A stretch of DNA of 23,427 nucleotides from a virus, in UHGV virus genome UHGV-1543744; one strand, written 5' to 3'. The translations under genes were made by a program, and so were the position numbers. The stretch's first letter is position 1. Every line of letters starts with the position of its first letter. Below the pieces are notes generated by a model. The model did no database searches. It was not told the origin of the DNA and worked only from the letters and a program-made list of their open reading frames with translations. Positions 976 to 23,427 of the stretch are shown piece by piece.

Positions 976-1007
976 ATCCCTATTCCCATCATTAAATAAT
1001 CGGACTA

Positions 1008-1035: not shown

Positions 1036-1056
1036 AACCCGTACTTAAGCTGGCTA

Positions 1057-7032: not shown

Positions 7033-7034
7033 AC

Positions 7035-7235: not shown

Positions 7236-7256
7236 GATTCTTCACCCGTCAGAACA

Positions 7257-7278
7257 GGGGGCGCGGTTCCGCGCCCCT
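7257..7278 (-). other. GC-rich stem-loop just downstream of the major capsid gene
   Basis: GGGGCGCGG-TT-CCGCGCCCC: 9-bp perfect G/C stem with a 2-nt loop, 7 nt after the capsid stop codon. No U-tract follows, so it is not a classical intrinsic terminator. Confidence 0.5.
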
Positions 7279-7284
7279 GAGTGA

Positions 7285-8490: not shown

Positions 8491-8504
8491 CGTATTTCTC
8501 CTGA

Positions 8505-9155
8505 TTAGAAGTTCAGATTTTTCAGTGCATTCAGTGCAGAGCTCACATCCTCAGCGTCGCGCAGGGACAGTGCGCCATAGCCCCCGGCCATGAATGCTTT
8601 GGCCTGGGTACGGGAGAGTCCGACATCACGCAGGACTCTTTCGATTTTTTTCTGTTCGGGGATTTCCCCGCGGGCCAGTGCGTTCTTGACGTCGCTGATC
8701 CGCGCCTCGTCGTTAGACGGGAACGTCACCAGGCTGACTTCCCAGAGGTCGATTTCTTTCAGCAGAAAGGCTTCTTTGCTCCGGTCGTATTCCCAGTCTT
8801 TCAGGACGTACCCAATAGAAAGGCCGGTTAACGAACCGGCCTTCATGTGTGCATGTGCGCGTTTTGCGAGGGGATCATCATCAATAAGCAACCGTCCCCT
8901 GACGTAAAGCCCGACATCGTCTTCCTTCATTTCGGTGTAAACACCGATGGGTTCATCCATGCGGTGCTGCCAGAGCAGCGCAGGTAACGCTTTTCTGTCA
9001 CTCCACGCCCGCAGGGAAGCAGCAAATGCCCCGGACATCACCACATCATCGTGGCTGTCCTTTACACCAAAGACGGAGCCATACCCTTCAAACTCACCGG
9101 AGTCACTGACAGATTTCAGACTCAGCGGTACATCAAGACGTTGTTTCGTCTGCAT
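8505..9155 (-). CDS. Prohead protease (HK97 family-like)
   Basis: Positioned between portal and major capsid genes. Start moved to ATG at 9155 (MQTKQRLDVPLSL...), which has an AAGGA Shine-Dalgarno. The ORF-track start at 9191 has none and would overlap portal further. Confidence 0.7.
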   Translation of the reverse strand: MQTKQRLDVPLSLKSVSDSGEFEGYGSVFGVKDSHDDVVMSGAFAASLRAWSDRKALPALLWQHRMDEPIGVYTEMKEDDVGLYVRGRLLIDDDPLAKRAHAHMKAGSLTGLSIGYVLKDWEYDRSKEAFLLKEIDLWEVSLVTFPSNDEARISDVKNALARGEIPEQKKIERVLRDVGLSRTQAKAFMAGGYGALSLRDAEDVSSALNALKNLNF

Positions 9156-10374
9156 TGGCGTTATCCTTCTGCTTACCGGCCTTACTGCCATCGGAGGGTT
9201 TCGTGGTCATGTTCATCGGTGTGAGATAGACATCACCACCGGGACGCGGATTCATATCTTCCAGGTCGCGGCAGTCATTGGGAGAGTAAATTCCCCAGTT
9301 AATCCCGGTGGCGTAGGCTTCAAAACGGGACTTCATATCCCCGCGCAGTAACGCCCCGGCGTTAAATTTGGCGTAATAAACGCCCTGCTTACTTTTTCGT
9401 ACCAGTCCGGTGTTGATCCGCTGTTCGATGCGGGTCAGATACGGCACCAGTGAATAGTTGATAAATCCGAGCCCCAGTTCTTCGATATTGTTGAAGGTGG
9501 CGCGATCGGTGTTCTGCACCATGTGCAACGGCACCCGGAACAGACGACAGATTTCTTCAAGCTGAAACTTGCGGGTTTCCAGGAACTGGCTGTCCTCGGC
9601 GTTCAGCGCCATCGACTTCCAGTCCAGCCCCATCTCAAGGATCATCGGGCGGTGAGCATTACCAAGCCCGGTGTGACGCTCCTCAAAATCTTTCTTCAGG
9701 CGCTCGTAAGCCTGATCTGACAGCGTCTGCTCTGTACGCAACACACCCGACGTCACCGCGCCATTGCTGAACAGTCTGGCCCCGTGCTCTTCGGTCGCTG
9801 CCGCCAGCGATATTGCCTCGCGGGCATAGGCGATGGGATTCAGTCCCACCAGACCGTCCAGCGTCAGCGTGCGCACATGCCAGATATCTTCCTGGCTCAG
9901 TACATCCGTGGAGCCGTCCGGGAATGTGACCTGGTAAACCGGTTCCCAGCTACTGTTAAGCTTCGGTACCACACAACCTGGGTCGACGGGCAGCAGTTCA
10001 GCCACTTCGCCAAATGCTTTCACTTTGTAGGCGTAAAAGTTTCCCCGCAGGCACAGACAGGTGACCACCAGCTCCCAGAACTCCTGCGGCGTCATATAGC
10101 CATTGGGACGCGTGGAGATCAGCTTATGCAGACGTTCGCCGGTGGCTCTCTGTTTCAGGCTGCCGTTCAGGTGATACAGGTTGCAGGGCAACATCCCGAC
10201 CGACTCCGCCAGCACCCTGACGCAGGAAAAAACCGCCGTCAGTCGCATGGCCCGCTGGCTGCTGATCTGCTTTCCGGTATAGGTGTCATATGACAGCCCG
10301 ATAGCATCCGCCAGCTCTGCTGGCGTGGTCACCGGTGCGTCACTTTTTCGTTGAAATAATCCCGAAAAGAACAC
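9133..10374 (-). CDS. Portal protein
   Basis: 413 aa, immediately downstream of the large terminase and upstream of the protease. Start codon is GTG at 10374 with a strong GGAGGT Shine-Dalgarno 6 nt upstream. Acidic, Lys-rich C-terminus. Confidence 0.75.
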   Translation of the reverse strand: MFFSGLFQRKSDAPVTTPAELADAIGLSYDTYTGKQISSQRAMRLTAVFSCVRVLAESVGMLPCNLYHLNGSLKQRATGERLHKLISTRPNGYMTPQEFWELVVTCLCLRGNFYAYKVKAFGEVAELLPVDPGCVVPKLNSSWEPVYQVTFPDGSTDVLSQEDIWHVRTLTLDGLVGLNPIAYAREAISLAAATEEHGARLFSNGAVTSGVLRTEQTLSDQAYERLKKDFEERHTGLGNAHRPMILEMGLDWKSMALNAEDSQFLETRKFQLEEICRLFRVPLHMVQNTDRATFNNIEELGLGFINYSLVPYLTRIEQRINTGLVRKSKQGVYYAKFNAGALLRGDMKSRFEAYATGINWGIYSPNDCRDLEDMNPRPGGDVYLTPMNMTTKPSDGSKAGKQKDNANADETTS

Positions 10375-10556
10375 TATTTACCTCCGCCGACAGACGGCTG
10401 TGTACGGTCGAGATATCGCGCCACCAGCCACGACCAGAACAGGCACAGCGCCCCGGCAACAACAAACCCCGCCGGGGGATAAATCAGCCAGGCACCATAC
10501 GCCAGCAAAAGCGCACCCAGCACGCCCACCAGAGGCGCGAGAATCAGCATGATCAT
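10374..10556 (-). CDS. Small membrane protein with two predicted transmembrane helices and a charged C-terminus
   Basis: 60 aa with two hydrophobic stretches and a charged tail ([14 protein letters not shown]). ATG with GAGGT Shine-Dalgarno. Lies between the terminase and portal genes and overlaps the portal start by 1 nt. Confidence 0.5.
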
Positions 10557-10567
10557 AATTACCTCAG

Positions 10568-12301
10568 TTAAAGCGAGCGGATCCCGTAGGACTCAATGTG
10601 ATCAGACAGCGTGTCTTCTTTCTCGTACAGCATGGCTCTGCCAACCGCCATAATCAGCGCAACTGCACCATCAATTTTGTTTTCCGCCTGCTCTTTGACG
10701 GGCTTCACCACATCATCGTTACCCGGAATGGTTTTGCCGACCACATTGCCGATACACCAGGTCATGATGGGATTGCCGTCATGATGAAAGCGCTCCGATT
10801 CAATCGCCGCTTCCAGTTCTTTCATCGGATCGGACATGTTGGTGTAGTTCTGAATGATGGTGATGGGGTTCAGGTCTTCATCAGCAAGGTCATGCGACAA
10901 CCCGGTCGCCCCGAAGGGGTCGATGGGTGACTCACTGACCGGGCTGATTTTGTTCGCCGCTTTGGCCTCCTCGAGGATGTAGCGATAATCCACCTCTGCA
11001 CCATCGGTAACGGTCAGAACGCCCATTTCCACCCATTTCTGAAAGCGTTCGGCTGTCCGGCGATCTTCATTTTTCTCGACGCTGTACACCGTGTCATACG
11101 GTACCCAGAAGCGCGGAGCCACACTGTAGTAATGCGTTTTACCGTCAATCTCGCGGGTATAAAGTCGCGCCATGCTGTTCATATCCAGCTTACGCGCCAG
11201 GTCAAAGGCCAGAATGCACGGCTGCCCCTCGAACTGCTCAAGGGTCAGTGATTTATCCTCGCAGCTCTGCCAGCTCACCAGGTTGAAATACGCCGAACGC
11301 GCCGACACCCAGATATTGAGGTGTTTTGTTTTAAAGACGTTTGCCAGACGGGCGTTATTTTTCGCACGCTGCTGCTGACTTAACAAAAATTCGCGATAAA
11401 CCGACACGCCAATATTTGGATTGGCTTTTTCCAGCACCTGCGGGTCGGTCCAGTCGTCACCTTCATCAACGGTATAGATGATCCCGAACAGTTCATCGTT
11501 AGGCACCGAGCCGTTGAGCATCTCGATAACTTCCCGCCGCTTGTCGTAGCACGGCCCCTCAATGTTGTACCCGGCAGTAGTAATGGCCCACATCAGTGGC
11601 TGACGTCGCGCCCCCATCCCGGTAAGCATCGTGGTGTAAAGCGCATCGGTGGCGTGCTCGTGATATTCATCCACCACCGCACAGTGGGGTGATGATCCAT
11701 CACCGGGGTTACCGATCAGCGGTTCAAACCGCGCGCCATCCTCCGGACGGTTCATGTTTGAGGCGTTAACCTCAATCCCGAACGCTTCCGTCAGCATGGG
11801 TGTGCGTTTACACATCAGTCGCGCCGGGCGAAAGACTTCCCACGCCTGTTTCTCTGTCGTGGCACCGGAATACACTTCCGCGCCAAACTCGTTATCACAG
11901 GCAAAACAATACAGGGCAACACCGGCAGAGATTGCTGATTTGCCGTTCTTACGGGGGATTTCGGTATACACCTCCCGGAAGCGGCGCAACCGGGTGCCTT
12001 TATTGACCCAGCCAAACGCACAGCAGATCACAAATAGCTGCCACGGCTCCAGCGTGATGGGCATCCGTTTAAATGCCCACTCACCCTTGGTGTGCGGCAA
12101 CAGCTGAATAAATTTGGCGGCCCGTTCAGCCAGATCCTTGTCGAAGCGGTAACGAAACGACTTACTTTTTTCCGCCATCAGGTCATCAAGATGGCGCTGG
12201 CAGGCCTGAATCACAAACTGGCAGGCCACAATCTTTCCGCGCACGACATCCCGGGCATACTGATTGGCAGCATTTACGTTGGGGTAAGATTTCCGGCTCA
12301 T
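10568..12301 (-). CDS. terL: Terminase large subunit
   Basis: 577 aa, directly downstream of the small terminase subunit. Size and position fit; the NTPase and nuclease motifs were not aligned explicitly. Confidence 0.75.
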
Positions 12302-12314
12302 GATTCGATGATTT

Positions 12315-12800
12315 TCAGATTGTCAGAAACGGGTTAGTGGCTTTCTTCTTCCCCGCCAGGCCAATCAGACGCTGTCGGCTGCTGGGGTCGAGTCCGAGCA
12401 TTGCCCCCGTGCTGCTCATCTCGGACTCCTGTTCTTTTTTGGCGGTCAGCTCCGGATTTTTGACCATGCCACCCATTGCACCGGTGATGGTGTTACCCTG
12501 TCTGGCAATATTTTTCACGGCACGTCGCCAGAACTCATAGGCCACACACCACCGCTCAAGTACCGCCAGGTCAGTCACGCACAGCAGGCCCTGACCGCAG
12601 AGTTCTTTGGTTGTCAGTTGCCACATGATCGTGGCGAGAGGGAGATCTTCTTCAGCGAACCACTCCGGTGGCTCAACACCTTTGATGGGCGTAAAAACAG
12701 GTTCATCTTTATTCAGGGCTCGCTTGCCGGGGTTTCCGGCCAGCGCCTTGCGCGCCGTTGGCTTGGGGCGACGCCCGGAACGCCCCGCCGTTCCAGCCAT
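12315..12800 (-). CDS. terS: Terminase small subunit (P27-family-like)
   Basis: Gly/Arg/Lys-rich N-terminus ([29 protein letters not shown]) typical of P27-type small terminases. Start moved to ATG at 12800, which has an AGGAG Shine-Dalgarno 8 nt upstream. The ORF-track start at 12809 is a GTG abutting the Shine-Dalgarno. Confidence 0.7.
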
Positions 12801-13010
12801 ATGCGGCACTCCTGGTTAAATTTCATTTTTCGCGGGTATAAAAAAACGATGGGGCGGGCAGTCCCGGATAGTCAGGGCTGTAGAGATTTGACTACCCCCT
12901 CCCCACTGGATTCAGGTTACTGCTATTCCGTTAATCGCTGCTTACGGGGATAGCTGCGTTGTGATTTTGACCATTCAGGTCGCCGCTATTTCCTCACCGA
13001 TTGGGTGCTA

Positions 13011-13034
13011 CGCGTGCGCGTACTTGTCCCGAAA
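13011..13034. repeat. Box CGCGTGCGCGTACTTGTCCCGAAA upstream of terS, repeated at 19144-19380
   Basis: The 14-mer CGCGTGCGCGTACT is identical at 13011-13024 and 19144-19157. TACTTGTCCCGAAA is identical at 13021-13034 and 19367-19380. A 12-mer copy lies at 19263-19274. All copies are in the same orientation. Confidence 0.6.
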
Positions 13035-13076
13035 TACCAGAAACCGCCAGCCAGAGGATGATTTCCCTCTGGTGGT

Positions 13077-13358
13077 CTACCTTTGCCTCTTGCCGCCATT
13101 TAACCGGAAGGCGTTACCGTTCGGTTGCGCTATCCCCATGCGGTGTTGCGTTTCGGTAACAGCTTTATGCAGGTCGCCAAAGTCCTCAACCTTCACGGGC
13201 GGGCGCTTCACGTTCTCCAGACACGTTTCACGGCGGCGCTTTATCCATTCCCGATCATCGTCCTCGGTGCATAACAGCATGACTTCCATCCATCGCGCTG
13301 CGGCGCGTCGGTACAGCCCTTTTGCTTCCAGATCCTCGGCTTTACTGTCGTTTACCAT
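13077..13358 (-). CDS. Small putative transcriptional activator, PerC-like (tentative)
   Basis: 93 aa. N-terminal motif ...KAEDLEAKGLYRRAAARWMEVM... resembles the PerC/Pch family as I recall it; this was not verified by alignment. ATG with GGGGGAG Shine-Dalgarno. Last gene before the terS upstream region and followed by a hairpin (CCAGAGG-N9-CCTCTGG). Confidence 0.35.
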   Translation of the reverse strand: MVNDSKAEDLEAKGLYRRAAARWMEVMLLCTEDDDREWIKRRRETCLENVKRPPVKVEDFGDLHKAVTETQHRMGIAQPNGNAFRLNGGKRQR

Positions 13359-13360
13359 GT

Positions 13361-13831
13361 TTATCTCCCCCAGAATGGCGTTTCATCGTCGAATGGTGGG
13401 CGTTGGTCAAAATCATCAGGGGTATTATATAACTCCCATCCCGGCGCGGATTGTGTTGTGTGGCCCCTGCTGGCTCCGCTTGCTTTGACTGATTCGGCCC
13501 GCTTCCCGCCGGGGCGTACCGTTCTGGCGCTGATCACGCTGTCGGCTACTACCTGATAACCTTGCTGTGTACCGCCATCCTTGCCCGTCCACTGATTGAT
13601 CTGCATCGCTCCGGCAACACTGACTAAATCGCCTTTAACGTGTCCTGCCAGTGCGTCGGCCTGTTTGCCGAATGCCACCACGCCCAGCCAGAAAGTAACC
13701 TCTCCGCCCTCTGCTGCATGGCAGGGCAGTGCCACCGCTAACCGGCCCATTGCCATGCTTGTACCGTTTGCTGTGGTACGGGTCTGGGGATCTGCCACCA
13801 GCCGCCCGTATGCTGAAATTTGTGCTGTCAT
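13361..13831 (-). CDS. Single-stranded DNA-binding protein-like (OB-fold)
   Basis: 156 aa. Residue pattern W..FGK..A...KG..V.V.G.L..NQW...Y.VVAD is consistent with an SSB OB fold, and the C-terminus is acidic with a PF tip (DDFDQRPPFDDETPF...). ATG with GAGGAAA Shine-Dalgarno. Confidence 0.5.
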   Translation of the reverse strand: MTAQISAYGRLVADPQTRTTANGTSMAMGRLAVALPCHAAEGGEVTFWLGVVAFGKQADALAGHVKGDLVSVAGAMQINQWTGKDGGTQQGYQVVADSVISARTVRPGGKRAESVKASGASRGHTTQSAPGWELYNTPDDFDQRPPFDDETPFWGR

Positions 13832-14130
13832 AGATATTTCCTCATGTAGTCACTACCTCCGGGGATAATTTTCATTTCTTCCCTTAAAGGCCACTGCTCC
13901 GCCATTGCTGCGGTCGAGTGATTCCCGTCATCACGTCCGGCCTGTGCTGCCGTCCAGTGTGTTGCATATTCTGTAAATCCAATTTCTGCTGGCTGCCTCA
14001 TCCAGTGGGCGATCATCCTCAAGGTCATTTGCAGGCTTTGGGTGTCGCCCTGTAATGCGCGTTTGTCAGTAAACCCCTTCAATGCTTCACGCTCCTGATA
14101 GGTCATTTTCTGGCTGGTTTCTGTATTCAT
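13828..14130 (-). CDS. Hypothetical protein
   Basis: 100 aa, ATG with AAGGTGG Shine-Dalgarno, ATGA-coupled to the SSB-like gene. First gene after the iteron region. Confidence 0.5.
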   Translation of the reverse strand: MNTETSQKMTYQEREALKGFTDKRALQGDTQSLQMTLRMIAHWMRQPAEIGFTEYATHWTAAQAGRDDGNHSTAAMAEQWPLREEMKIIPGGSDYMRKYL

Positions 14131-14183
14131 TGCCCACCTTCGTTATAAGCTACCCCCCCCATAGAATCTTTTTGGGGGTGTAA

Positions 14184-14433
14184 TATCCCTACCAATCCCT
14201 ACTAACTGTCTCAGGCCACGAATGGCAAGGCTTTCAGACTGGTAGGCATTCAATTTTGTTGCCCTACATAACCCTACTTATCCCTACTAAATCACTTCAA
14301 CGGCATTTTACTGCCTGTTTTATTTGGTAGGGATATGTAGGGATAAGTAGGGATAAAAATATATATCCCTACCTAGTTTAAAGCCTTGCTACGTCTGGCC
14401 TCGTCTCGTTTTTAGTAGGGCAGTAGGGATAAG
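14184..14433. repeat. Iteron cluster, putative replication origin
   Basis: About 12 copies of the core GTAGGG/CCCTAC. Reverse copies lie at about 14187, 14197, 14262, 14272, 14282 and 14367. Three perfect tandem 10-bp units GTAGGGATA(T/A) lie at 14327, 14337 and 14347, followed by the AT-tract AAAAATATATAT (14355-14366). Further forward copies are at 14414 and 14423. The cluster is immediately 3' of the primase-helicase stop. Confidence 0.6.
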
Positions 14434-14449
14434 TGCCGCCGTAAAAGTT

Positions 14450-16891
14450 TCAATCATCACTCTGCCCGCTCTCCACACCGTAAGCGCGTGGCATGAACTC
14501 CTCAGCCTTCTCGTTATAGCCAACGTTGGTTTGCGCTCTGCCGTTAATGCTTCTCGTCAGGTAGCTGGCTCGGTACTCTTTTGCTGCTGATTTTATGGCG
14601 CGTGAAAACTTATTGACGGAAAGCGGTTTACCCAAACCGTGATACTCCATAAACGCCAGATAAAGATGATAAAGATACGTCCTCGGCTCTGGCTGGCCTG
14701 CCCATGTACCTCCGCCCATCATCATGCCTTTGGGTTCGTTCATGAAAAAAAGCGCCGCACACATATCGACAACCGGATCCGTGCCGCGTTTAACCTCTAG
14801 CGCCTCCTGCGAATCGCGCTGCTCTAGTAATAGTGCTTTTGCTTTGTTCTGGTCGGCAAAGGTGGTTAGCAGGTGGCGGATAATCACCGGGATTTCTCGC
14901 CTGATTTTTGCTGTTAAATCCGGGTCTTTGTCTGCGTCTGATACCGGGTTATTAAACGGGAATATCACGCGGCGGCGGGCAATGCCCCCGTTTCGCTCCG
15001 TGAATGTCATCGGCTCGTTATTGGTTGCCATAACAACGGCATTTATCACGGTTGTGAACTGCTTTTCATATTTCCCATCAATCTCTACCGGATCGCCGCC
15101 CGTAATGGCTTTAATCCCCGCACCCTCTCCAACATAGCGGGTCTGGTCAGGCATAATAATCAGGCTTTTTCCTACGAACTGCGCCCGTCCCCGTGCGGTG
15201 TCCAGCGTCATCATGCTACCGCTGGCGGTGTTGTGTTCACCTGCCAGCGTGGTTGCTATACTGCTGAATACGGATTTCCCACTGCCGCCCTCGCCAGTTA
15301 TCTCAATGAATAGCTGCCAGTCGTGACGCTTCGCCAGCACCATAAACAAGGCTGCTTTGATACGCTCGGCCTTATGATGGTCGCCAGCCGTTGCATGATT
15401 CAGCCAACGGGTAAAATTGGGGGCGCTGGTGGTAATATTTTCCCCCGGCGCTGGCGGGGTGTAGGTGATCCCATTGTGGTTCATCAGCCAGTTACCCGGC
15501 GAATGGGCGGAAAACGTCTGCGTGGCGAGGTCATAAACGCCGTTATCAAAACCAATCAGATCCCCGCTCCGCTCACCAATTACCGGTATTTGCAGCTTCA
15601 TGGTTGCGACAACCGATTTAATCCCCTTTTCGGTGTAGTGGGCTTCGTGCTCGTCGAAAATTGCCACCATAACCCTTTCTAATTCACTGTCTGGTAGCTT
15701 CACCCATACGCCAGATTCGTAGCAGTAAACAGTGCCACTATCAGGGTTAACCGCCAACATATCCCATCGAGATGAAAGCAACCGCGCTTTCTGGCTGGCT
15801 GCCATTTGTGCAATATCTCCGACTTCGGCTTTACGGCGGGATTTACCGCCCGCAATGGCCTGTAGTTGTGGTTTCACGGCTTCCCCCTGAATCTGGTACA
15901 TCGAATCGTTAAACGCAGCCGTAGCGACTTCCAGCCCGTTTTGCTGGCGGTAGTCGTCCCAGTCGGCTTTGTAGTCTGTCGGCGGCAGCGCCACCCAGCC
16001 AGCCACGGATAATGCTGCTTTCTCTGCGGCATCTTTGCCCGTGTTCGCCTGTTCGTCCTGCTGGTGGTCGTTATCTGCGGCAATGATAATTTGCGACTGC
16101 GGGTGTTTCCGGCGCATTACTCTGGCAACGTGGATCAGGTTCCCGGCGTCAATTGCCGACACTGTAAGCGCGTCCGGGCGCATCAGGTGAACGGACAGGG
16201 CCGTCGCCAGCCCCTCGGCAATTAATACGCTCTGCGGCTGTTCCGGTGCGTTAACGGCGTGATATGCCCCGCGCTTTGCTGAACCTGTCAGGAGTCGCTT
16301 CTCTCCCTGCGGTGTAATGGTTTGCGCTGCTGCCACTGCGCCGGATTCGTCCACCAGCTCCAGCAATAACGAACCATCCGGCATTACCGGATATTTAAAC
16401 CCGGTCAGCCCTTTTGATTGCAGGTAATCAGATTCGCCCTGTGTGGCACTCTGGCGCATTCCGGCATACAGACGGGCAAACGTAGCCCTTCGCTGCTCTG
16501 CGTCCTCTGCTGCCTGTTTCTGGCGCTCCTGCTCACGCTGCTGGCGGTCAGCTTCCAGTTGCTCCCTTCTATGGCTCGCTGCCACCGGATCGGTTTCCGC
16601 TGCCCGGTAATCAATACCCAGCACATCAGCGGCAAGCCTCGCCGCTTCTGTGGTGGCGCAGTTGTTCACCTTCTTAATCAGGTCTAAACCGTCACCAGCG
16701 CCACACTGATTGCAGATAAAGCTACCGCGCCCGTTGTCGTCGAATCTGAAACGGTCTTTTCCACCACATGCAGGGCATGGAGAATGGCGGCGCGATGAAT
16801 CAGGCACGTCGATAGACAATCCAGCCAGCACATAAGGCCAGCGCCCGGCGGCGGCACTGGTCACTTCGCGGATAAGGTCGATATTACGCAT
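14450..16891 (-). CDS. DNA primase-helicase (zinc ribbon, TOPRIM-like primase core, C-terminal P-loop NTPase)
   Basis: N-terminal CxxC...CxxC zinc ribbon (CPACGGKDRF...CNQCGAGDG), acidic TOPRIM-like motifs (AEG...IIIAADNDH), and a C-terminal Walker A (GEGGSGKS). Start moved to ATG at 16891, which has a perfect AGGAGG Shine-Dalgarno. The ORF-track start at 16948 is a GTG. Confidence 0.8.
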   Translation of the reverse strand: MRNIDLIREVTSAAAGRWPYVLAGLSIDVPDSSRRHSPCPACGGKDRFRFDDNGRGSFICNQCGAGDGLDLIKKVNNCATTEAARLAADVLGIDYRAAETDPVAASHRREQLEADRQQREQERQKQAAEDAEQRRATFARLYAGMRQSATQGESDYLQSKGLTGFKYPVMPDGSLLLELVDESGAVAAAQTITPQGEKRLLTGSAKRGAYHAVNAPEQPQSVLIAEGLATALSVHLMRPDALTVSAIDAGNLIHVARVMRRKHPQSQIIIAADNDHQQDEQANTGKDAAEKAALSVAGWVALPPTDYKADWDDYRQQNGLEVATAAFNDSMYQIQGEAVKPQLQAIAGGKSRRKAEVGDIAQMAASQKARLLSSRWDMLAVNPDSGTVYCYESGVWVKLPDSELERVMVAIFDEHEAHYTEKGIKSVVATMKLQIPVIGERSGDLIGFDNGVYDLATQTFSAHSPGNWLMNHNGITYTPPAPGENITTSAPNFTRWLNHATAGDHHKAERIKAALFMVLAKRHDWQLFIEITGEGGSGKSVFSSIATTLAGEHNTASGSMMTLDTARGRAQFVGKSLIIMPDQTRYVGEGAGIKAITGGDPVEIDGKYEKQFTTVINAVVMATNNEPMTFTERNGGIARRRVIFPFNNPVSDADKDPDLTAKIRREIPVIIRHLLTTFADQNKAKALLLEQRDSQEALEVKRGTDPVVDMCAALFFMNEPKGMMMGGGTWAGQPEPRTYLYHLYLAFMEYHGLGKPLSVNKFSRAIKSAAKEYRASYLTRSINGRAQTNVGYNEKAEEFMPRAYGVESGQSDD

Positions 16892-17225
16892 GGTTGCCTC
16901 CTGCCACGGTCGCGCCCATGTCTTTAACCATGCTTTGCCATATCTCACGCCCGACGTCAGTCAATCCGTCATTAGTGACGCAACGCTCAAGAAGCTCGAC
17001 CCCCACGGTTTCCCACTGCGGGTAGGACACTTTCATGGCTGCCAGTGTGTAGCTATCGATCAGGCTGCGAACGCCTTTTACTCCATTGACGATTTCCACA
17101 CGGACGGCGAGGCCGTCCGCATCAACCATGAAATAGTCACCGCCGCTGGTGGAGGTAATGTGGTTATACAGTGCCGACGCATACTTATTCGCCAGCGCAT
17201 TCAGTCTGAAATTTTTAGTAATCAT
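16884..17225 (-). CDS. Hypothetical protein
   Basis: 113 aa, ATG with GAGGGGG Shine-Dalgarno. Its stop overlaps the primase start by 8 nt. Confidence 0.5.
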   Translation of the reverse strand: MITKNFRLNALANKYASALYNHITSTSGGDYFMVDADGLAVRVEIVNGVKGVRSLIDSYTLAAMKVSYPQWETVGVELLERCVTNDGLTDVGREIWQSMVKDMGATVAGGNHA

Positions 17226-17234
17226 GTCGCCCCC

Positions 17235-17861
17235 TCAGTGCGGCAGCGGCATTTCAGGCCAGCCGTTTTCATCCAGTTCAGCTATAAAGCTGTTGTGAAG
17301 TTCAGCAAGCGTTTCACGCCCGAACGGGGTCAACTCGCCGCGCTCCGTGTCGATCATGGCCTGATAAAAAACAATGGCGTTCGCTGTTCCCTGCTCAATG
17401 CCGTAGCGCTCAACCATTGCGCCCTCCATGTTGTTAGCCATCGCCAGACGTTCCGCGAACGGGTAAACCACAATCCCCGCCGTGCCATTGGAGTAAATCG
17501 CCACCTGCGATGAAGTGCCGTCAGACTCAGTTACCGTGGTTGTGCCGTTTTCGCGCTTCATCTCAGAAATGAACGTCGCAGCAATCAGCCAGCGCCACAT
17601 AGTGACGTTATGCTGCGCGGTGAAGTCGAACCAGCCACGCGCCCCGCCATCAGCAACGGCAAAATGAATGGCGTATCCGATATCTGGCTTATCGTCGTAC
17701 TCTCCGGCGTCAAGGCCGTTCACGGCGCTCTCGTAGCTGATAAGAGCAACCTGCTCATATCCCCCGGCATCATTGCGGGTCATGATATTGACGCCGTGCG
17801 GTGTGGCTTCGGCGTGTAATAAGTCGGCATTTCCCGATTTAATGGTCGGTGCGTTGCTCAT
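17235..17861 (-). CDS. Hypothetical protein
   Basis: 208 aa, ATG with GGAGGG Shine-Dalgarno, ATGA-coupled to the upstream gene. No recognisable family. Confidence 0.5.
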   Translation of the reverse strand: MSNAPTIKSGNADLLHAEATPHGVNIMTRNDAGGYEQVALISYESAVNGLDAGEYDDKPDIGYAIHFAVADGGARGWFDFTAQHNVTMWRWLIAATFISEMKRENGTTTVTESDGTSSQVAIYSNGTAGIVVYPFAERLAMANNMEGAMVERYGIEQGTANAIVFYQAMIDTERGELTPFGRETLAELHNSFIAELDENGWPEMPLPH

Positions 17862-18121
17862 GCGCTGCCCTCCGCATCAATTCTGGCTATATCGACAATC
17901 GTCAGGACTTTACTCAGCCAGCAATACGCGATGGCTGCTTGCTCAACTTCGAGGAGTGGTAATAAATCGGTCATAACGTGAGCCAGCCCATTGCGGGCGC
18001 GGGTCATGCGTTCTGCTGTTCGGTCCGCCAGCGTAAAATCATCCGGGTATGCTTCTTTACGAGATAGCATCGATTCGGCTTCCAGATCTGCCGGGTGGCG
18101 ATAGATGGTATTTATGTTCAT
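17858..18121 (-). CDS. Hypothetical protein
   Basis: 87 aa, ATG with GGGAGGG Shine-Dalgarno, ATGA overlap with the upstream gene. Confidence 0.5.
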   Translation of the reverse strand: MNINTIYRHPADLEAESMLSRKEAYPDDFTLADRTAERMTRARNGLAHVMTDLLPLLEVEQAAIAYCWLSKVLTIVDIARIDAEGSA

Positions 18122-18432
18122 TTGCCCGCCCTCCCTTTGGCTTCTTTTTCACTGATTGAGCGCAAGAATGCGGCGTTTGCAGCGCTATCGTTCAGCGCCA
18201 GCGCAACTTCTCCGATATGTCCCAGCATTGCGCCTAATCTGTACATATCAGCCTTAGCGCTTTCCTCCGGGTAGCCATCGCTACCAGCCGCCCAGAACAT
18301 GAGGCTACCAATGGCACTTACGCCCAGCATTAAATCATCCACGGCATCACTGGCGCAGCTCTCAATTCCTTTCAGATCATCAGGCGTACAACCATCAAAT
18401 TTGCAGGACACTAAATCGTTATACATGCTCAT
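18118..18432 (-). CDS. Hypothetical acidic protein
   Basis: 104 aa, ATG with GAGGTGG Shine-Dalgarno, ATGA overlap with the upstream gene. Confidence 0.5.
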   Translation of the reverse strand: MSMYNDLVSCKFDGCTPDDLKGIESCASDAVDDLMLGVSAIGSLMFWAAGSDGYPEESAKADMYRLGAMLGHIGEVALALNDSAANAAFLRSISEKEAKGRAGK

Positions 18433-18608
18433 GCCGCCACCTCACGAACGCGGGTAATCTGGATGTGGGAAAGGCGTTCATTTCTGGCCTGATTTAGCGC
18501 CTCAGCTTTGGCGCTGATCGCGCTGCGGGCGTCAACGATATAAACGAACTCGACTAATTCGCCGCTCCGGGCGGTGGCGCATCCTGCAACACGGAAGTAA
18601 TTAAGCAT
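18429..18608 (-). CDS. Hypothetical small protein
   Basis: Start moved to ATG at 18608 (MLNYFRVAG...), which has an AGGGGG Shine-Dalgarno. The ORF-track start at 18638 is a TTG. Confidence 0.45.
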   Translation of the reverse strand: MLNYFRVAGCATARSGELVEFVYIVDARSAISAKAEALNQARNERLSHIQITRVREVAA

Positions 18609-18792
18609 GTGCGCCCCCTGTGCGAATACGTCCGGCAAAAAAGCAAACGTGATCCCGCGCCAGAATGCGGCGGGCTTCCTGCTCAGTCTCTGCGGCGATA
18701 TGGTGAATTTTGACGGTAATTGTCGGCATATCGCGGCGAACTGCGGCGATAATCCAGATAAATTGCGGTTTTTGGGTAGGGGTAGTAGCCAT
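18601..18792 (-). CDS. Hypothetical small protein
   Basis: Start moved to ATG at 18792 (MATTPTQKPQFIWIIAAVRR...), which has an AGGAGG Shine-Dalgarno 8 nt upstream. The ORF-track start at 18960 has none. Confidence 0.45.
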   Translation of the reverse strand: MATTPTQKPQFIWIIAAVRRDMPTITVKIHHIAAETEQEARRILARDHVCFFAGRIRTGGAHA

Positions 18793-18950
18793 TATGGCAG
18801 CCTCCTGTAACTGGGATTTATTCCCACCACCGGAAACGCCAATTTCACTGGTGGTGAGCTGAACAGGGTTGGCGTAACCGGCGTTACAGGAAACCGGCGC
18901 GGATCGCTCCGCCCCCATCCAGCCCACCATTACTTTTTGAGCAATATGGG

Positions 18951-19550
18951 CTATAGCCATATCGCTGGGAAAGAGGTGTGCAGATGCGAGGACACAAAAA
19001 AGACGCTCGGCGCGTCATGTGTCGCCTGTAACATTATCAGGACGCCAATCCCGGCACCAGATTTTGCTGGTGCGCTATAACCATAAACCGGGTTGGCGAT
19101 AGTCGGCAAGCCCTTTTTTATGGACTCCAGAAACTCACCTTCGCGCGTGCGCGTACTGTTGCATAAATTCCCTGCATCTAGTGGTGATGTCAGAAAAATC
19201 TTCCCGCCTCGTGTAGTGATGATGGGAAAATCTTCCTCGCGTAGTGACCCCCAATAAATCTTCGTGCGCGTACTGGTCTCGAAACTCTCCTCGTCACCAC
19301 GACGAGAAAATGAGGAGCTGGCATTAGCTGGCACTGTTATGCCAGCTTCGCATTCATGCGCGTGCGTACTTGTCCCGAAAACACCAAGATTTGTAAAGAT
19401 CTGGCGGTGGCAAATGTCAGGTTTTGACAGGTTCCAAACGTCGCTATTTGTCGCAATCTGGCGGCGGGCTGCTTTGCTCCAGACGTTAACATTTGCATAC
19501 ATCAGGCCAGCCAGGGGAAAGGCTTTATTCTGGATGGCGGCATTAAGCAT
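18951..19550 (-). CDS. Questionable ORF spanning the repeat-rich region
   Basis: 199-aa ORF with an ATG at 19550 overlapping the antirepressor stop, and a G-rich weak Shine-Dalgarno. It runs through the tandem repeats, three hairpins and the box shared with the terS upstream region, and uses many rare codons (ATA, CTA, ACA, AGT). It may be a regulatory or noncoding region instead. Confidence 0.3.
   Translation of the reverse strand: MLNAAIQNKAFPLAGLMYANVNVWSKAARRQIATNSDVWNLSKPDICHRQIFTNLGVFGTSTHAHECEAGITVPANASSSFSRRGDEESFETSTRTKIYWGSLREEDFPIITTRGGKIFLTSPLDAGNLCNSTRTREGEFLESIKKGLPTIANPVYGYSAPAKSGAGIGVLIMLQATHDAPSVFFVSSHLHTSFPAIWL
19131..19310. repeat. Array of about six degenerate tandem repeats with a roughly 30-bp period
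   Basis: Units begin at about 19131, 19164, 19194, 19227, 19255 and 19281, with consensus roughly (G/T)AAAT(C/T)TTCC..CG..GTA(G/C)TG(A/G). Spacings are 33, 30, 33, 28 and 26 bp, so they are not locked to codon phase. Flanked by inverted repeats at 19054-19073, 19290-19306 and 19326-19347. Confidence 0.5.
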
Positions 19551-20376
19551 GATTAGCCCCCAGATGTTTAGCTAACCAGCGCTGAGAGAGGCGGATTAGC
19601 TCGGCTTTACGCAGGTCATATCCCATACCCATATCAATCAGCGTAATGTTGGTACTCTCCAGGTAGGCGAGGTGTTCCAGTTGCCCTGCGTTCATGCTGT
19701 CCCGTGGTTCGCCAGTAATGTCATTTGCCTGCGCCCACTGCTTCGCCGTCATGCCACCCAGCACGATACGGGCGATCATGTTGCTCTCGTTGCTGTAGTG
19801 GCGAGCCTGCGTCTGTTTACCCTGTTCTGCGCGGGCGCTTTCCAGCGCTACGCACATCGGTTTAAACAGGTTGGCGGCACTGATACGGGCTTTTAGCTGG
19901 CGACGATAGCGGGCGGCGATTTCAGGCACGCTACGCTGTAATTCTTCCTCGCACTGGATGAAATAACGGCGGATAGCGCGGCCCTGTTCAGTGCGTTCGA
20001 TCATTGCCAGTTCTTTCGCCATTCCGACACTTAACAGATAGTCTTTGCCGGGTCTGCCAGAGTGCTTAATCTTGCTGTAAGCCGCGCCATTCGGGCTTTT
20101 CCCCAGATTTGGGGAAATTGTTTTATGGACTGAGTAATCGTGCCCAATGGTGAAGTCATATTCAGAGATGCGATCAGTGATCCATGTAGAGAAGTCTTTT
20201 CCCACGCCCAACGCTTTGTGTAACGCTTTTGCGCTAACAATATTGGTTTCACGCCCACCGATATGACCAGGAATAACCGGGACAATTGTGGCAAATTCAT
20301 TACCGTTAATTGTTCCCTGATAGGCGTTCAGATGAGGGGCGGCCTCAGAAATTAATCTGCTTTTTTCGATGTTCAT
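19543..20376 (-). CDS. Phage antirepressor-like protein (Ant/Rha-type N-terminal domain with ORF6C-like domain)
   Basis: 277 aa. N-terminal segment ...IVSAKALHKALGVGKDFSTWITDRI... resembles antirepressor N-domains, and ...DYLLSVGMAKELAMIERTEQGRAIRRYFIQCEE... resembles the ORF6C/KilAC-type domain (from memory). ATG with GGAGA Shine-Dalgarno. Confidence 0.55.
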   Translation of the reverse strand: MNIEKSRLISEAAPHLNAYQGTINGNEFATIVPVIPGHIGGRETNIVSAKALHKALGVGKDFSTWITDRISEYDFTIGHDYSVHKTISPNLGKSPNGAAYSKIKHSGRPGKDYLLSVGMAKELAMIERTEQGRAIRRYFIQCEEELQRSVPEIAARYRRQLKARISAANLFKPMCVALESARAEQGKQTQARHYSNESNMIARIVLGGMTAKQWAQANDITGEPRDSMNAGQLEHLAYLESTNITLIDMGMGYDLRKAELIRLSQRWLAKHLGANHA

Positions 20377-20388
20377 TTTCAGTCTCCG

Positions 20389-20823
20389 TTAGGCGGCGGT
20401 GAGATTGTCCGGGTATAGGTTGAGAATGTCGGCAATTTCAGGCTGAGAAAGTCCCTGATAGCCGCCAGCGTCGGCGTTATGGTTCACAAGCCGAATAACT
20501 TTTAGAACGTCACCGCGCCCGGTAAAGCGATAGCGTAAATGTGACCCTATCCCGTCGGGGTTCTTTTCGTCTATACGCTCAAGCTGAATATCAAGCCTGC
20601 GCTCTAACTCGCTGGCGTAGTTCCTTCCAGATGAAAGGCGGCAATATTGCAGAATGTCATTTTCTGTCCATCCCTCTATACCAGTACGCAGCATATAGAC
20701 GCGGGCGCGGTGTTTCTTTGGGGTACGCTTAGGTACTTGTACCGGGCTGGTGGTCGGCGTAATATCAGACGTGCGAATATCTGAGTTAGCCGCCTGCTGT
20801 ACGGGGCGGTTTTTCTTTTTCAT
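20389..20823 (-). CDS. Hypothetical protein with basic, Pro/Thr-rich N-terminus
   Basis: 144 aa, ATG with AAGGTGG Shine-Dalgarno, start overlaps the AlpA stop by 1 nt. N-terminus MKKKNRPVQQ...PKRTPKKHRAR suggests nucleic-acid binding. Confidence 0.5.
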   Translation of the reverse strand: MKKKNRPVQQAANSDIRTSDITPTTSPVQVPKRTPKKHRARVYMLRTGIEGWTENDILQYCRLSSGRNYASELERRLDIQLERIDEKNPDGIGSHLRYRFTGRGDVLKVIRLVNHNADAGGYQGLSQPEIADILNLYPDNLTAA

Positions 20824-21041
20824 TACGCCACCTTTCCCCGGCGCTCCGCCAGCCAGTTGTGAATCTCAACCGCATCAAACGCAGTCACGTTATCTGTTAG
20901 CTTCACTGGGCGTGGAAGAGTGCCATTTTTAACCCATCTATCAATAGTAGGCAGTGAAACACCTAGCAATTCCGGCATGCGAAAGCGACGGATGTATCCA
21001 GTTGTTGGGATAGCTGATGATGCTGGCTTGTGTGCTGTCAT
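20823..21041 (-). CDS. alpA: AlpA-family (MerR-like helix-turn-helix) transcriptional regulator / excisionase-like protein
   Basis: 72 aa. Motif ...RMPELLGVSLPTIDRWVKNGTLPRPVKLTDNVTAFDAVEIHNWLAERR matches the AlpA/Xis helix-turn-helix family of P4-like elements and PICIs. First gene after the AT-rich leader. Confidence 0.7.
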   Translation of the reverse strand: MTAHKPASSAIPTTGYIRRFRMPELLGVSLPTIDRWVKNGTLPRPVKLTDNVTAFDAVEIHNWLAERRGKVA

Positions 21042-21121
21042 ATCTCTAGTAACCTCTCTGATAGCTCATGAAGTTACTTAAAGTTTAGTGGTTGCCCATA
21101 CAGTATTTCTATTAAGACTAG

Positions 21122-21174
21122 AATCTATTGAAAGAAATTATAAATCTATTGAAAAAATACTGATCCACTGAAAG
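21122..21174 (-). promoter_or_regulatory. Putative alpA-operon promoter with flanking operator-like direct repeats
   Basis: Minus-strand TATAAT (plus 21137-21142) lies between two perfect copies of TTTCAATAGATT (plus 21122-21133 and 21143-21154), with a third degenerate copy at 21162-21173. Repeats are spaced about 20 bp apart. No good -35 is visible. About 90 nt upstream of the alpA ATG. Confidence 0.3.
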
Positions 21175-21511
21175 ATTGCAAATGCAGGTGGGATAATTAT
21201 TTTCTTTATTTTCAATTAGTTACCAGTTTAAAAAATCATTGTTTTATCAAAGAGTTATATCTTTCATCGTCATTCATCATGTTTTTACATTTCCTTTTAT
21301 CTTTTATTATTCAATTGGTTGAGTCGGTTTATAATGGCTCATGATGGCTTAAAATGCTAATGATAGCTGGCGTATCTTTTAGAGATGGGGTGATTACAGA
21401 TGAACTAAGCCGAACAGATATAGCAATGGCTAGGCATAGAATTATCTATGCTGGTGGAGATGGGTAAACAGGTAATGCCCCGCCATTGCTTTGGAGGGGC
21501 GTGAAAAGTGA

Positions 21512-22162
21512 TTAGTCGAGATCGTGGACAGCTAATAAAGCCCGTGAGATTTTTTCTAGGAATGTGGCTTTTGCTATTCCTTTATGGGATATCCCTTCAT
21601 CCTTGATTAAGGTTTCTATGTCACGGTATATAGCTGTGCGATTAGGTTTCCCATTTTGGGTGTAGGAAGATGAGCCTGATTTTTTTATCAGCAGATGTAC
21701 TATCAACCCCATCATTTTCATTGTCCCGTTTTCCTCATCCTGCTTTCTATGCTGCCCACGTCCGCTGCGGTTGGTTTCTTTGATGTAGTTTACTAACTGG
21801 AGTCCTCCAAGGTTTCGGGCTTTTTCTTCCCAGCCCTTGGTGCCACGCAAATCATCAATCGCTTCTGATATTTTCTGAACAATTATTTCTGGTGTATTTG
21901 TGTCAATAAATGGGTAAGAAGCTAAGAAAATATCAAGGGCATGGCAAGGCTCGTCTTTACTAGTTTTTTCACCTCTGTACACCTTGATAGCTCTGGCAAG
22001 ATGAGTTCTGACAAAATCGACATATTCGAAATTTTCCTCAGGCACATCGCTAATGCGCATAGATGGGTTTAGGCCAGCCAAGGCCACAGCCATTTCATGA
22101 GGGGTAATCGATACAGATGAACAAAGCCGTTCGATTGGCGATTTTCTCAAGATGTTGTTCAC
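21512..22162 (-). CDS. Hypothetical cargo protein, translationally coupled to the integrase
   Basis: 216 aa. GTG start at 22162 with a strong GGAGG Shine-Dalgarno 5 nt upstream, overlapping the integrase stop (GTGA). Visibly lower G+C than neighbouring genes. No recognisable family or catalytic motif. Confidence 0.55.
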   Translation of the reverse strand: MNNILRKSPIERLCSSVSITPHEMAVALAGLNPSMRISDVPEENFEYVDFVRTHLARAIKVYRGEKTSKDEPCHALDIFLASYPFIDTNTPEIIVQKISEAIDDLRGTKGWEEKARNLGGLQLVNYIKETNRSGRGQHRKQDEENGTMKMMGLIVHLLIKKSGSSSYTQNGKPNRTAIYRDIETLIKDEGISHKGIAKATFLEKISRALLAVHDLD

Positions 22163-23427
22163 ATTTGCCTCCGGGCTTTATCGAATGGCGTTACGTTGTA
22201 GTCTTTTCCGCTTTCCAGTGCCACCAGCAAATCACACCACTGCGCCAGCGCCGCTTTACGCTCATCAAAATACTGGTGACGGTTATAGATACCTTCCACG
22301 CCTTTAATTTTGTGGTTGAGGCATCTTTCAGCCACTACGGGATCAACGCCCAGCGCGGCTAAATGGGTGCGGGCTGTGCGCCGGAAGTCGTGAATCGTGA
22401 AATTAGGCACATCCGGCATTTCAGCGCGAACCTTAGCCAGTGCTACGGGTAAAGTGCTTTCCTGAATATGTGGGATCATTCTGTTTTGCATCTTTCTGGC
22501 TGGCAGTACCCATGCGCTGTTGCATGAGAACGTTTTAAGCTCTCTCAGCCATTCGACGGCTGGCGGTGCTAATGGGATGTCTATAGCGTCGCCGTTTTTA
22601 CTGCGTTCTTCTGGTAAGTGCCAGATGCCTTTGTCCAGGTCGAACTCCTCCCAGCGGGCGGCGCATAACTCCATTTTGCGGACGCATAACGCTAACAGTA
22701 ATTTGAACGTGATTTCGTTCTGGCGACTGAATCCCTTAGCTGTGCGCATAGCCTGAAACAGTCGGATTAGTTCGCCACGTGTTAACCAGCGGTCGCGGGA
22801 AACTTCTTTCCCTCCGGCGTCTGCCACCTCAAAGGCTGAACACGGGTTAATCTCCAGTGCGTGCCGCTTAATGCCGTAGTCAAATATGCGGCGTGTCCAG
22901 CGCAGAACGTCCGTTGCTATGGTCGGCGCTCCACGGTCAACAATACTTTTCAGCATGTCGTCGATATGGCGCGGCTTCACGTCCTCCACCTTCATGCTGC
23001 CAATGCATGGGTTTATATCTTTGTCGATACGGCGGCGGAGTATATCGGGGTGCTTCCAGCGCGGGAGGATCTGACGCTCAAAGTATTCAGCGGCAAGCTC
23101 TGAAACGCGCATAGCGTTCTTCTCTGCTTCCATCTTCGCCAGTGCTTCGGTTTTGCGCTTCTGCTTCTCTCCTGCAACGTCATAGCCCAACGCAACGCGA
23201 GCCGATAGCTCTTTGGCTGTCTCTCTGGCCTTTGATAGTGATAGCTCGGCATATGAGCCGATAACCATTGCTCGCTGCTTACCTGCGAATTTATAGCGAA
23301 AGCGCCAGAAAGGGACTGTGTAGTTTTTGGGGTAGCAAATATAAAGGCCGTTGCCATCGGCCCTTCCTTCAAATCTATCTCCGGCCTTTATCCATGCGCG
23401 GATCTGCATGTCTGTAATCTTTGGCAT
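22159..23427 (-). CDS. int: Tyrosine integrase, P4-like family
   Basis: 422 aa. N-terminal DUF4102-like arm-binding region (MPKITDMQIRAWIKAGDRFEGRADGNGLYI...), then a catalytic domain with HxxR (FTIHDFRRTART) and the tyrosine region (GVEGIYNRHQYFDERK). The ATG sits exactly at the window edge, so the promoter and att site are outside the window. Confidence 0.85.
   Translation of the reverse strand: MPKITDMQIRAWIKAGDRFEGRADGNGLYICYPKNYTVPFWRFRYKFAGKQRAMVIGSYAELSLSKARETAKELSARVALGYDVAGEKQKRKTEALAKMEAEKNAMRVSELAAEYFERQILPRWKHPDILRRRIDKDINPCIGSMKVEDVKPRHIDDMLKSIVDRGAPTIATDVLRWTRRIFDYGIKRHALEINPCSAFEVADAGGKEVSRDRWLTRGELIRLFQAMRTAKGFSRQNEITFKLLLALCVRKMELCAARWEEFDLDKGIWHLPEERSKNGDAIDIPLAPPAVEWLRELKTFSCNSAWVLPARKMQNRMIPHIQESTLPVALAKVRAEMPDVPNFTIHDFRRTARTHLAALGVDPVVAERCLNHKIKGVEGIYNRHQYFDERKAALAQWCDLLVALESGKDYNVTPFDKARRQM

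Follow-up and report, generated by a model that had tools for sequence, protein, structure and literature searches.

UHGV virus genome UHGV-1543744, a stretch of 23,427 nucleotides here called the window, contains a Gram-negative phage-inducible chromosomal island (PICI). Between the integrase gene int and the gene alpA, this island carries a gene for a protein of 216 amino acids (aa), X216 (21512-22162, minus strand), followed by a spacer of 470 bp. Our main finding is a two-way linkage between the X216 gene and an array of four short direct repeats (boxes) at the predicted alpA promoter, which is independent of both the alpA allele and the integrase clade. An earlier note on this DNA, written from the sequence alone, had regarded the gene as a candidate for a novel anti-phage system; the association of X216 with the alpA boxes suggests a role in satellite induction, a reading which that note did not contain.

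Linkage of the X216 gene and the alpA boxes

A set of 40 sequences bearing genes of the X family was assembled, comprising the window, seven species genomes, contigs encoding distant homologues, annotated regions of E. coli chromosomes, records of the PLSDB plasmid collection, a capsid-forming PICI (cf-PICI) from an induced lysate, and metagenome contigs. A box cluster was present in 38 of these 40 sequences, 180-500 bp downstream of the gene. Conversely, a metagenome scan with the box pattern alone yielded 21 loci, and in all 20 loci whose upstream part is long enough, an X-family protein (34-99% identity) is encoded immediately upstream, with zero unrelated hits; boxes without the X gene were never seen among these 20 assessable loci. 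A scan of viral_contigs with a looser three-box pattern gave low-complexity matches only. Among complete E. coli genomes, the box segment was found in 111 and the cassette harboring X216 in 112.

The boxes follow neither the alpA allele nor the int clade. PICIs which have the same alpA allele (77-92% nucleotide identity) but another gene in the slot between int and alpA contain no boxes. In box-bearing loci, AlpA is of at least two very different types (72 aa and 94-102 aa), and the integrases belong to two clades that are about 25% identical. The X family itself keeps its position behind int across about ten genera, down to 23% identity. A clear exception is L018, an E. coli ssrA island, with int coupled to an X homologue of 23% identity and alpA located 3.4 kb and three genes away, one of them encoding 390 aa on the opposite strand. 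Upstream of this alpA, TYTATCCGGAC occurs as three direct repeats at a spacing of 19-20 bp (9974-10025), showing that the promoter architecture is kept with a changed box sequence. In locus L050, two strict box matches were found 81 bp apart.

The alpA control region

The spacer (21042-21511) had been described as an ORF-free leader of the 216-aa gene. Indeed, it contains no open reading frame (ORF) of at least 40 aa, the only ones, both on the plus strand, encoding 37 aa (21354-21467) and 32 aa (21508-21606); it is, however, not a leader of this gene, as it lies 3' of X216 and 5' of alpA, whose ATG is at 21041, and constitutes the alpA promoter region. Just past the X216 stop codon, two hairpins lacking a U-tract are found on the minus strand (21434-21500; RNA fold -31.4 kcal/mol, z = -2.4). 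A terminator scan of the minus strand returned nothing for 21434-21500, and the hairpins are not a canonical intrinsic terminator. They are followed by four tandem repeats of about 10 bp read from the sequence, AGCTATCATT, AGCATTTTA, AGCCATCATG and AGCCATTATA (21330-21368, minus strand), and by the most AT-rich core of the spacer (21180-21330, GC content 0.25).

The four boxes are direct copies of a consensus TTYAATRGAW on the minus strand. Box 1, TCTTTCAGTGGAT, is located at 21163-21175; box 2, TTTTTCAATAGAT, lies 19 bp past box 1 at 21144-21156; box 3, TCTTTCAATAGAT, 21 bp past box 2 at 21123-21135; and box 4, CTTAATAGAAATA, identified from the sequence and from alignment A7, 18 bp past box 3 at 21104-21116. 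Box 3 runs into an imperfect palindrome, AATAGA-T-TCTAGT, which reads ATGGA-T-TCCAT in relatives. Box 4 overlaps a -35-like element TAGAAA (21106-21111) that is separated by 18 nt from the predicted alpA -10 hexamer TAAACT (21082-21087, minus strand), which was assigned from invariant columns of alignment A7. With 8 of 12 consensus positions matched, the predicted promoter is weak and falls under the threshold of the promoter scan, which was 9 of 12. The transcription start of alpA is predicted to lie near 21075.

Alignment A7 comprises 10 loci from at least eight genera (Escherichia, Klebsiella, Chimaeribacter, Acerihabitans, Erwinia, Pantoea, Yersinia, and Serratia) with X216 identities of 24-38%. 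The four boxes, the palindrome at box 3, and an invariant T-A-N3-T in the -10 hexamer are kept in these loci, and the remaining spacer is unalignable. The box count in the window alone is not significant (3 observed versus 1.2 expected, with 9% of shuffles reaching 3); the significance of the boxes comes from their clustering, their spacing, and their conservation across loci. Furthermore, tandem arrays of 10 bp are present in every X216-bearing locus between the X216 stop codon and the boxes, for example in L003 (8751-8924), L019 (6780-6815), and L049 (7125-7335). The repeat unit differs from locus to locus; relatives contain 13 copies of CACGTCACCT, GCCATCAGTT, six copies of TGTTCATC, phased T-tracts, and others.

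Several other functions were considered for the repeats of the spacer. A replication origin or a P4-like crr is not supported, as the island has its own iterons ATCCCTAC at the primase gene (14131-14449), which differ, and no further copies of the arrays exist in other parts of the loci; some 10-bp arrays (TGTTCAT/C) resemble the P4 type I iteron TGTTCACC. Arm-type integrase sites were rejected because the att repeats read TGTACA, and the boxes are common to integrase clades with only 25% identity. Autoregulation by AlpA is unlikely, since islands with the same alpA allele lack the boxes and loci with boxes encode AlpA proteins with dissimilar recognition helices. Binding sites for integration host factor (IHF) were also rejected: the boxes fit the core TCAAnnnnTT, but the conserved RGAW falls on N positions of the IHF consensus and GGAA variants lose the TT. 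A small RNA or riboswitch found no Rfam match in the spacer beyond a sub-threshold one to CRISPR-DR (E = 0.085), and the hairpins past the stop codon have no U-tract.

Additionally, a motif TCATGAGCYAT / CATGRGCTATCA occurs in four places, namely 20 nt upstream of the alpA ATG (21061-21071), inside alpA (21010-21020), in the 10-bp array (21334-21344), and near attL upstream of int (about 22490-22510 in locus L001).

Coupling of X216 to the integrase gene

The X216 ORF begins with a GTG codon (22162-22160) that overlaps the int stop codon TGA (22161-22159), resulting in a GTGA overlap at 22159-22162 on the minus strand, read as TCAC on the plus strand. A Shine-Dalgarno sequence GGAGG was read from the sequence inside the end of int (22168-22172, minus strand), 5 nt upstream of the GTG. 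The earlier note had reported the ORF, the overlap, and the Shine-Dalgarno sequence, and the coordinates bear them out. Such an overlap indicates translational coupling of X216 to int, and X216 would thus be translated together with the integrase from a transcript of the quiescent island. The existence of a family of homologues and a confident family-based AlphaFold model show that the ORF is a real gene. The GC content is 0.427 for the X216 ORF (0.415 at third codon positions) and 0.338 for the spacer, falling to 0.252 between 21180 and 21330, as compared to 0.524 for int and 0.537 for the region from alpA to the primase gene; the visibly AT-richer composition noted before was therefore confirmed.

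In nearly all loci with enough upstream sequence, the X-family gene begins 0-4 nt from the stop codon of a tyrosine integrase gene. An ATGA overlap was found in L002, L003, L005, L007, L008, L016, and L019, a spacing of 0-2 nt in L004, L006, L021, and L049, and the widest spacing was a gap of 29 nt in L050. This arrangement spans two integrase clades with about 25% identity and the integration sites yicC, ssrA, der, and yjgB, in agreement with the co-expression with int proposed in the earlier note. The divergence of X and integrase is uncoupled: in L004 and L006, the integrase is at 85-90% identity and the X protein at 33%.

Sequence and predicted structure of X216

Neither X216 nor at least 24 of its homologues gave a match above threshold in Pfam, NCBIfam, and PADLOC. 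X216 had zero matches in PADLOC-DB 2.0 at E ≤ 10, and four distant homologues as well as the alternative slot genes gave no significant match to PADLOC (best 15-16 bits). Sequence and profile searches of the PDB with X216 were empty. The sole family match was phrog_30524 (E = 1.1e-34, residues 11-209 against profile positions 14-213 of 220); it covers the full length of X216, yet nothing about the function of X216 follows from belonging to this PHROG, for which no function is known. The statement that no family can be assigned to the protein thus still holds, and the profile and structure searches which the earlier note had proposed revealed no confident homology to an integrase accessory factor or a housekeeping function.

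Homologues are few and all are labelled hypothetical. A first pass identified 19 clusters, and a profile search raised this number to about 67 (clustered at 90% identity); among 1.84 billion proteins, 37 representatives were obtained at 50% identity. All sources belong to the Enterobacterales (Escherichia, Salmonella, Klebsiella, Buttiauxella, Yersinia, Serratia, and Rouxiella). An alignment of 24 sequences (A3) revealed the conserved motifs TPE (90-92), LGG (118-120), and SGRGxHRKxDE (133-143), and a C-terminal motif IS.KG..KSTF..K (191-204).

AlphaFold with the family alignment predicted an all-alpha protein of nine helices (predicted local distance difference test, pLDDT, 90.5; predicted template modeling score, pTM, 0.60). 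A Foldseek search with this model found no structural neighbor (best E = 2.1 against the PDB and E = 0.64 against BFVD); judged from the model, the fold is apparently new. No significant profile or fold match to a helix-turn-helix (HTH) domain was obtained for X216, and PF05930 and HTH_17 gave no match above threshold, whereas the neighboring 72-aa gene does match them. Sub-threshold HTH matches in individual homologues all fall on the C-terminal helix pair: Phage_AlpA in P0026 (E = 0.024, residues 188-213), and SpoIIID and Mu I-gamma in P0031. These matches are faint hints of DNA binding. Residue 197, at the start of the last helix, is the only alignment column that separates loci with GGAA-type boxes from those with GAT-type boxes.

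Exchange of the cassette between islands

Islands without X216 at the same site (L009-L011) were compared with the window. Homology ends at 22183-22187, about 25 nt before the int stop codon, and returns at 21013-21057, at the alpA start. Since homology is lost before the int stop codon and regained at alpA, X216 and the spacer are exchanged as one unit of about 1.1 kb. This exchangeable cassette (21058-22183) runs from the last ~8 int codons through X216 and the complete spacer to the ribosome-binding region of alpA, and the discrete AT-rich cassette at 21042-22162 that had been proposed earlier nearly coincides with these measured boundaries. The cassette region was found at ≥95% identity, in nearly all cases ≥99%, in 112 of 5426 complete E. 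coli genomes. In most of these carriers, the integrase is only about 82% identical to that of the window; a cassette with ≥99% identity next to such an integrase shows that the cassette moved between islands. About 357 E. coli genomes encode a member of the integrase family, hence about two thirds of them lack X216. The earlier note had named the presence of the same gene at this slot in all relatives with no phenotype as a point against its reading; X216 is not present in all of them.

The earlier note had also proposed to compare the occupants of the slot in related elements. Each of seven sampled islands without X216 contains exactly one slot gene of unknown function; in five of them it is a member of a mosaic family (281-321 aa), in the other two of a family of 293 aa. 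All slot genes are AT-rich, with a GC content of 0.36-0.43 as compared to 0.52-0.54. The alternative slot genes are followed by a hairpin with a T-run terminator (L009 4916-5023, L010 4831-4943, L011 4806-4921), leaving about 60 bp to alpA. In this stretch, an 8-bp inverted repeat CCCGTAAC/GTTACGGG brackets the alpA Shine-Dalgarno sequence, and the window retains a 6-bp version, AGTAAC/GTTACT (21048-21078). This inverted repeat may serve translational or antitermination control of alpA.

A homology of X216 to the other slot genes, seen by eye as an N-terminal HTH_17-like motif and as C-terminal EK..LL..LLKK / IS....F..K, was not supported, as hhalign gave a probability of 0.2-0.3%. Hidden Markov models of the N- and C-terminal modules scored the other slot genes no better than shuffled sequences; the idea of shared modules was therefore rejected. 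The slot and its variability are already-known features of PICIs. The position between int and alpA is named as an accessory or immune region of PICIs in a passage of PMC11364771 citing Fillol-Salom 2022, and EcCIMP1 carries an uncharacterised accessory coding sequence (EcCIMP1_002) between int and alpA and confers superinfection immunity without explanation (PMC11773190). The integrase-proximal accessory hotspot invoked earlier is documented for PICIs.

The element and its surroundings

The element belongs to the Gram-negative PICIs and has yicC and dinD as the flanking genes of its insertion site. Its genes are arranged in the order int, X216, alpA, a 144-aa gene, Bro/AntA, Ash, Icd-like, small ORFs, a P4-family primase, SSB, and PerC, all on one strand from int to PerC, and the island in NZ_CP136018.1 has a size of about 12 kb between dinD and yicC. 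This corresponds to the published layout of Gram-negative PICIs (PMC6092414; PMC10111431). The int, alpA, and pri-rep genes running in one direction, a size within about 10-15 kb, and a specific attachment site identify the element as such an island. The cassette region is 100% identical to that of the ~12-kb dinD/yicC island of E. coli GDSC2239PM (NZ_CP136018.1). A P4-like satellite, a type named in the earlier note beside PICI-like elements, was ruled out: the capsid-hijacking genes psu, sid, and delta are not annotated in the complete island and do not appear among the Pfam matches of the window ORFs scanned, and the layout is that of a PICI instead.

The tyrosine integrase of 422 aa is encoded at 22159-23427 on the minus strand, and the window ends exactly at its ATG; it matches Pfam Arm-DNA-bind_3, Phage_int_M, and Phage_integrase, and is annotated as integrase beside yicC in NZ_CP136018.1. 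The first gene downstream of the cassette is alpA (72 aa, 20823-21041, minus strand; Pfam Phage_AlpA and HTH_17), the master activator of Gram-negative PICIs (PMC6092414). The iterons ATCCCTAC are arranged in direct and inverted orientation around an AT-rich stretch at 14131-14449, just downstream of the P4-family primase gene. By its iterons and its location, this region is the predicted replication origin of the PICI; a position downstream of pri agrees with the description in PMC10111431. Additionally, the PICI carries a gene for a PerC-family regulator (window 13077-13358), and PICI-borne regulators of this kind were reported to affect expression of virulence genes of the locus of enterocyte effacement (PMC11773190).

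Small circular records bearing the X216 cassette have been deposited as "plasmids", namely NZ_CP148430.1 (L027; 12,152 bp) and NZ_CP146545.1 (17.8 kb), and are probably excised PICIs. LR881103.1 (L049), deposited as "Escherichia phage vB_KppS-Ant", is a cf-PICI from an induced lysate containing int, an X homologue (28% identity), 10-bp arrays, four boxes, and a 94-aa AlpA. The 12,152-bp circular record and this lysate-derived cf-PICI are indirect evidence of helper-dependent excision and packaging. In L001, TGTACA repeats were found in four copies between yicC and int (22440-22475) and in two copies at the dinD end (10400-10425). They are likely to represent the arm-type integrase sites of the PICI; no exact core of ≥12 bp shared between the two ends of the L001 island was found.

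The window itself is a join of two parts. Positions 257-12904 comprise late genes, from terS to the tape measure gene, of an SfV/HK97-like prophage, and positions 12807-23427 comprise the PICI; in NZ_CP136018.1, these are two separate loci of one strain. The 98 bp common to both parts (12807-12904) lie directly upstream of terS and probably represent a cos region that the PICI has copied. The join was absent from every complete E. coli genome searched; either the assembly is chimeric at these shared 98 bp, or the PICI has really captured late genes, as has been reported for PICIs (PMC10111431). The segment 257-12904 matches the GDSC2239PM prophage at 99.8%; window positions 1-256 do not match it, so that the left end is a different tail-module variant.

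Discussion

The strict linkage of X216 to the array at the alpA promoter and its co-expression with int make a regulatory function the best-supported reading. We tentatively propose, with a confidence that falls somewhat short of even, that X216 is an integrase-co-expressed regulator of alpA which binds the boxes. It would be a DNA-binding protein with a previously undescribed all-alpha fold that occupies the box array and sets whether alpA is switched on, with excision, replication, and packaging to follow. In its likeliest form, it would act as a gatekeeper or repressor, or as a helper-sensing switch, being relieved or converted by an active helper phage. The cassette would then consist of X216 and the alpA control region with its 10-bp repeats, AT-rich stretch, and four helically phased boxes over the weak promoter -35. 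We infer the binding of X216 to the boxes as well as the direction of regulation and the helper input. The conserved coupling to int fits a product that is required as long as the island stays silent.

[quoted passage not shown] The SaPI proteins Stl/Rpr are located beside int, are co-transcribed in the quiescent island, are highly divergent, and are all-alpha, as proposed for X216; they act on the early-operon promoter and are released by a helper-phage protein, and the role proposed for X216 follows the same logic. Like Stl, X216 is encoded in the int operon adjacent to the early-operon promoter, where repeated sites are located. However, Stl/Rpr and X216 share no sequence or fold similarity, the only Stl match in Foldseek (8p8o_J, E = 5) being noise; furthermore, a clear N-terminal HTH is present in Stl and none is detectable in X216, and Stl is encoded divergently to the early operon where X216 is co-directional. 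In the immunity cassettes of temperate phages, which combine repressor and operators as one unit, and in the repressor-int operons of P2 and 186, a gene and its cis sites are swapped between conserved flanks. The regulator of the P2/186 operons is likewise encoded together with the integrase, but in the PICI int comes first, and X216 is unrelated to CI or C repressors. For Gram-negative PICIs, no repressor is known; the helper switches on alpA independently of SOS by an unidentified route (PMC6092414; PMC11773190).

Several observations weigh against a box-binding regulator. The box sequence is near-constant while X216 falls to about 24% identity, and a conserved host or helper factor as binder fits equally. 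A weak promoter matching 8 of 12 positions, with boxes upstream of and over the -35, resembles an activated rather than a repressed promoter, and a constitutive activator would not keep the island silent. The L018 homologue is separated from alpA by 3.4 kb and three genes, and the model of X216 reveals no detectable DNA-binding fold. The prototype EcCICFT073 has alpA directly after int (PMC6092414), hence an X216-like protein is not generally required. Finally, the linkage could in part arise if recombination is confined to the conserved flanks in int and alpA, and the linked loci are often close relatives, so that the number of independent lineages is about 12-15 rather than 40.

The main rival reading takes X216 to be an accessory gene in the 5' hotspot, that is, a single-gene anti-phage or interference factor or a gene of host benefit placed behind int for expression in a silent island, which we consider possible but doubtful. 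The boxes would then belong to one ancestral form of the alpA promoter, to which AlpA, a helper activator, or a host factor binds, and would be linked to X216 by adjacency. X216 shares with EcCIMP1_002 and the PICI 5' accessory region the slot between int and alpA, the orientation of int, the variable occupancy, the AT-richness typical of exchanged cargo, and the absence of PADLOC matches; it is found in 112 of about 357 genomes with this integrase family, and seven other PICIs carry at least two unrelated families in the slot. The ≥99% identical cassette beside an ~82% identical integrase indicates recent horizontal spread, and X216 has no DNA-binding fold. In the passage of PMC11364771 that cites Fillol-Salom 2022, PICIs are said to carry immune systems at their 5' or 3' ends, and the unexplained superinfection immunity of EcCIMP1 (PMC11773190) comes with an accessory gene in the same slot. 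Yet neither X216 nor its distant homologues match PADLOC, no enzymatic, transmembrane, or effector-like feature was found, and the pointer to anti-phage defence in the earlier note gained no support from domain or fold matches. In another enterobacterial satellite, P4, the hotspot gop-beta-cII adjacent to int reportedly contains variable genes close to the integrase (Rousset 2022); similarity to it is limited to a sub-threshold match (16 bits) of the distant homologue P0039 to the PADLOC gop model. Diverse recognisable defence systems were reported for P4 and P2 hotspots (PMC13586616), whereas eight sampled PICIs at this site hold only single genes of three families and no recognisable defence system. 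X216 is deeply conserved at its exact position, across about ten genera and down to 23% identity, and brings its own version of the alpA control region, which is not known to have been described for immune cargo. Adjacency poorly explains why boxes always occur with the gene (20 of 20) and are absent from islands with the same alpA allele, and it is hard to reconcile with the linkage because the rest of the spacer has diverged beyond alignment.

The boxes might alternatively dock a helper or host activator of alpA, with X216 being a modulator that does not bind DNA, such as an anti-activator or decoy setting the induction threshold or helper specificity; we judge this improbable. Phased direct repeats between about -35 and -100 next to a weak -35 are classically seen in promoters that depend on an activator, alpA is induced by helper phages also in the absence of AlpA (PMC11773190), and both the conservation of the boxes during divergence of X216 and its lack of a DNA-binding fold would be accounted for. 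No candidate activator was identified, though, and there is no clear reason for tight linkage of a trans-acting modulator to the site; the sequence data fit a modulator and a box-binding regulator alike. There is only a slim chance that X216 is a partner of the integrase, acting in directionality of integration and excision, in integrase stability, or in maintenance such as addiction, and that the boxes are unrelated to it. The coupling to int is the most conserved contextual feature, holding for two clades, several integration sites, and even L018 with its distant alpA. However, the integrases concerned are about 25% identical between clades, and the uncoupled divergence of X and int in L004 and L006 is the opposite of what a specific protein-protein partnership predicts. 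Moreover, about two thirds of the islands with the same integrase family lack X216, the TGTACA repeats at the att sites are unrelated to boxes and 10-bp arrays, and an excisionase-like function is already provided by AlpA-family proteins (PMC10111431).

The protein family, its apparent fold, the four-box alpA promoter, and the obligate association of gene and boxes appear to be new, and no description was found in the literature searched. AlpA is the known activator in the helper-mediated switch-on of Gram-negative PICIs, and X216 together with its 70-bp four-box target constitutes a concrete candidate pair for this step. The pair is conserved in E. coli as well as in Yersinia, Serratia, Erwinia, and Pantoea, and occurs in demonstrably mobile islands. 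If X216 were an anti-phage gene, it would represent a new single-gene system from a known hotspot. If it is a regulator, its fold would be new among DNA-binding proteins, and satellites by which virulence and defence genes are spread would have an exchangeable module for their induction. As a more far-reaching and rather speculative possibility, a large class of Gram-negative PICIs and cf-PICIs may have its missing master regulator in the X216 family, which would also be the point where the helper signal is sensed. The cassette from int to alpA would then be an exchangeable module determining induction specificity, and other PICIs would have alternative versions of this device in their unrelated slot genes.

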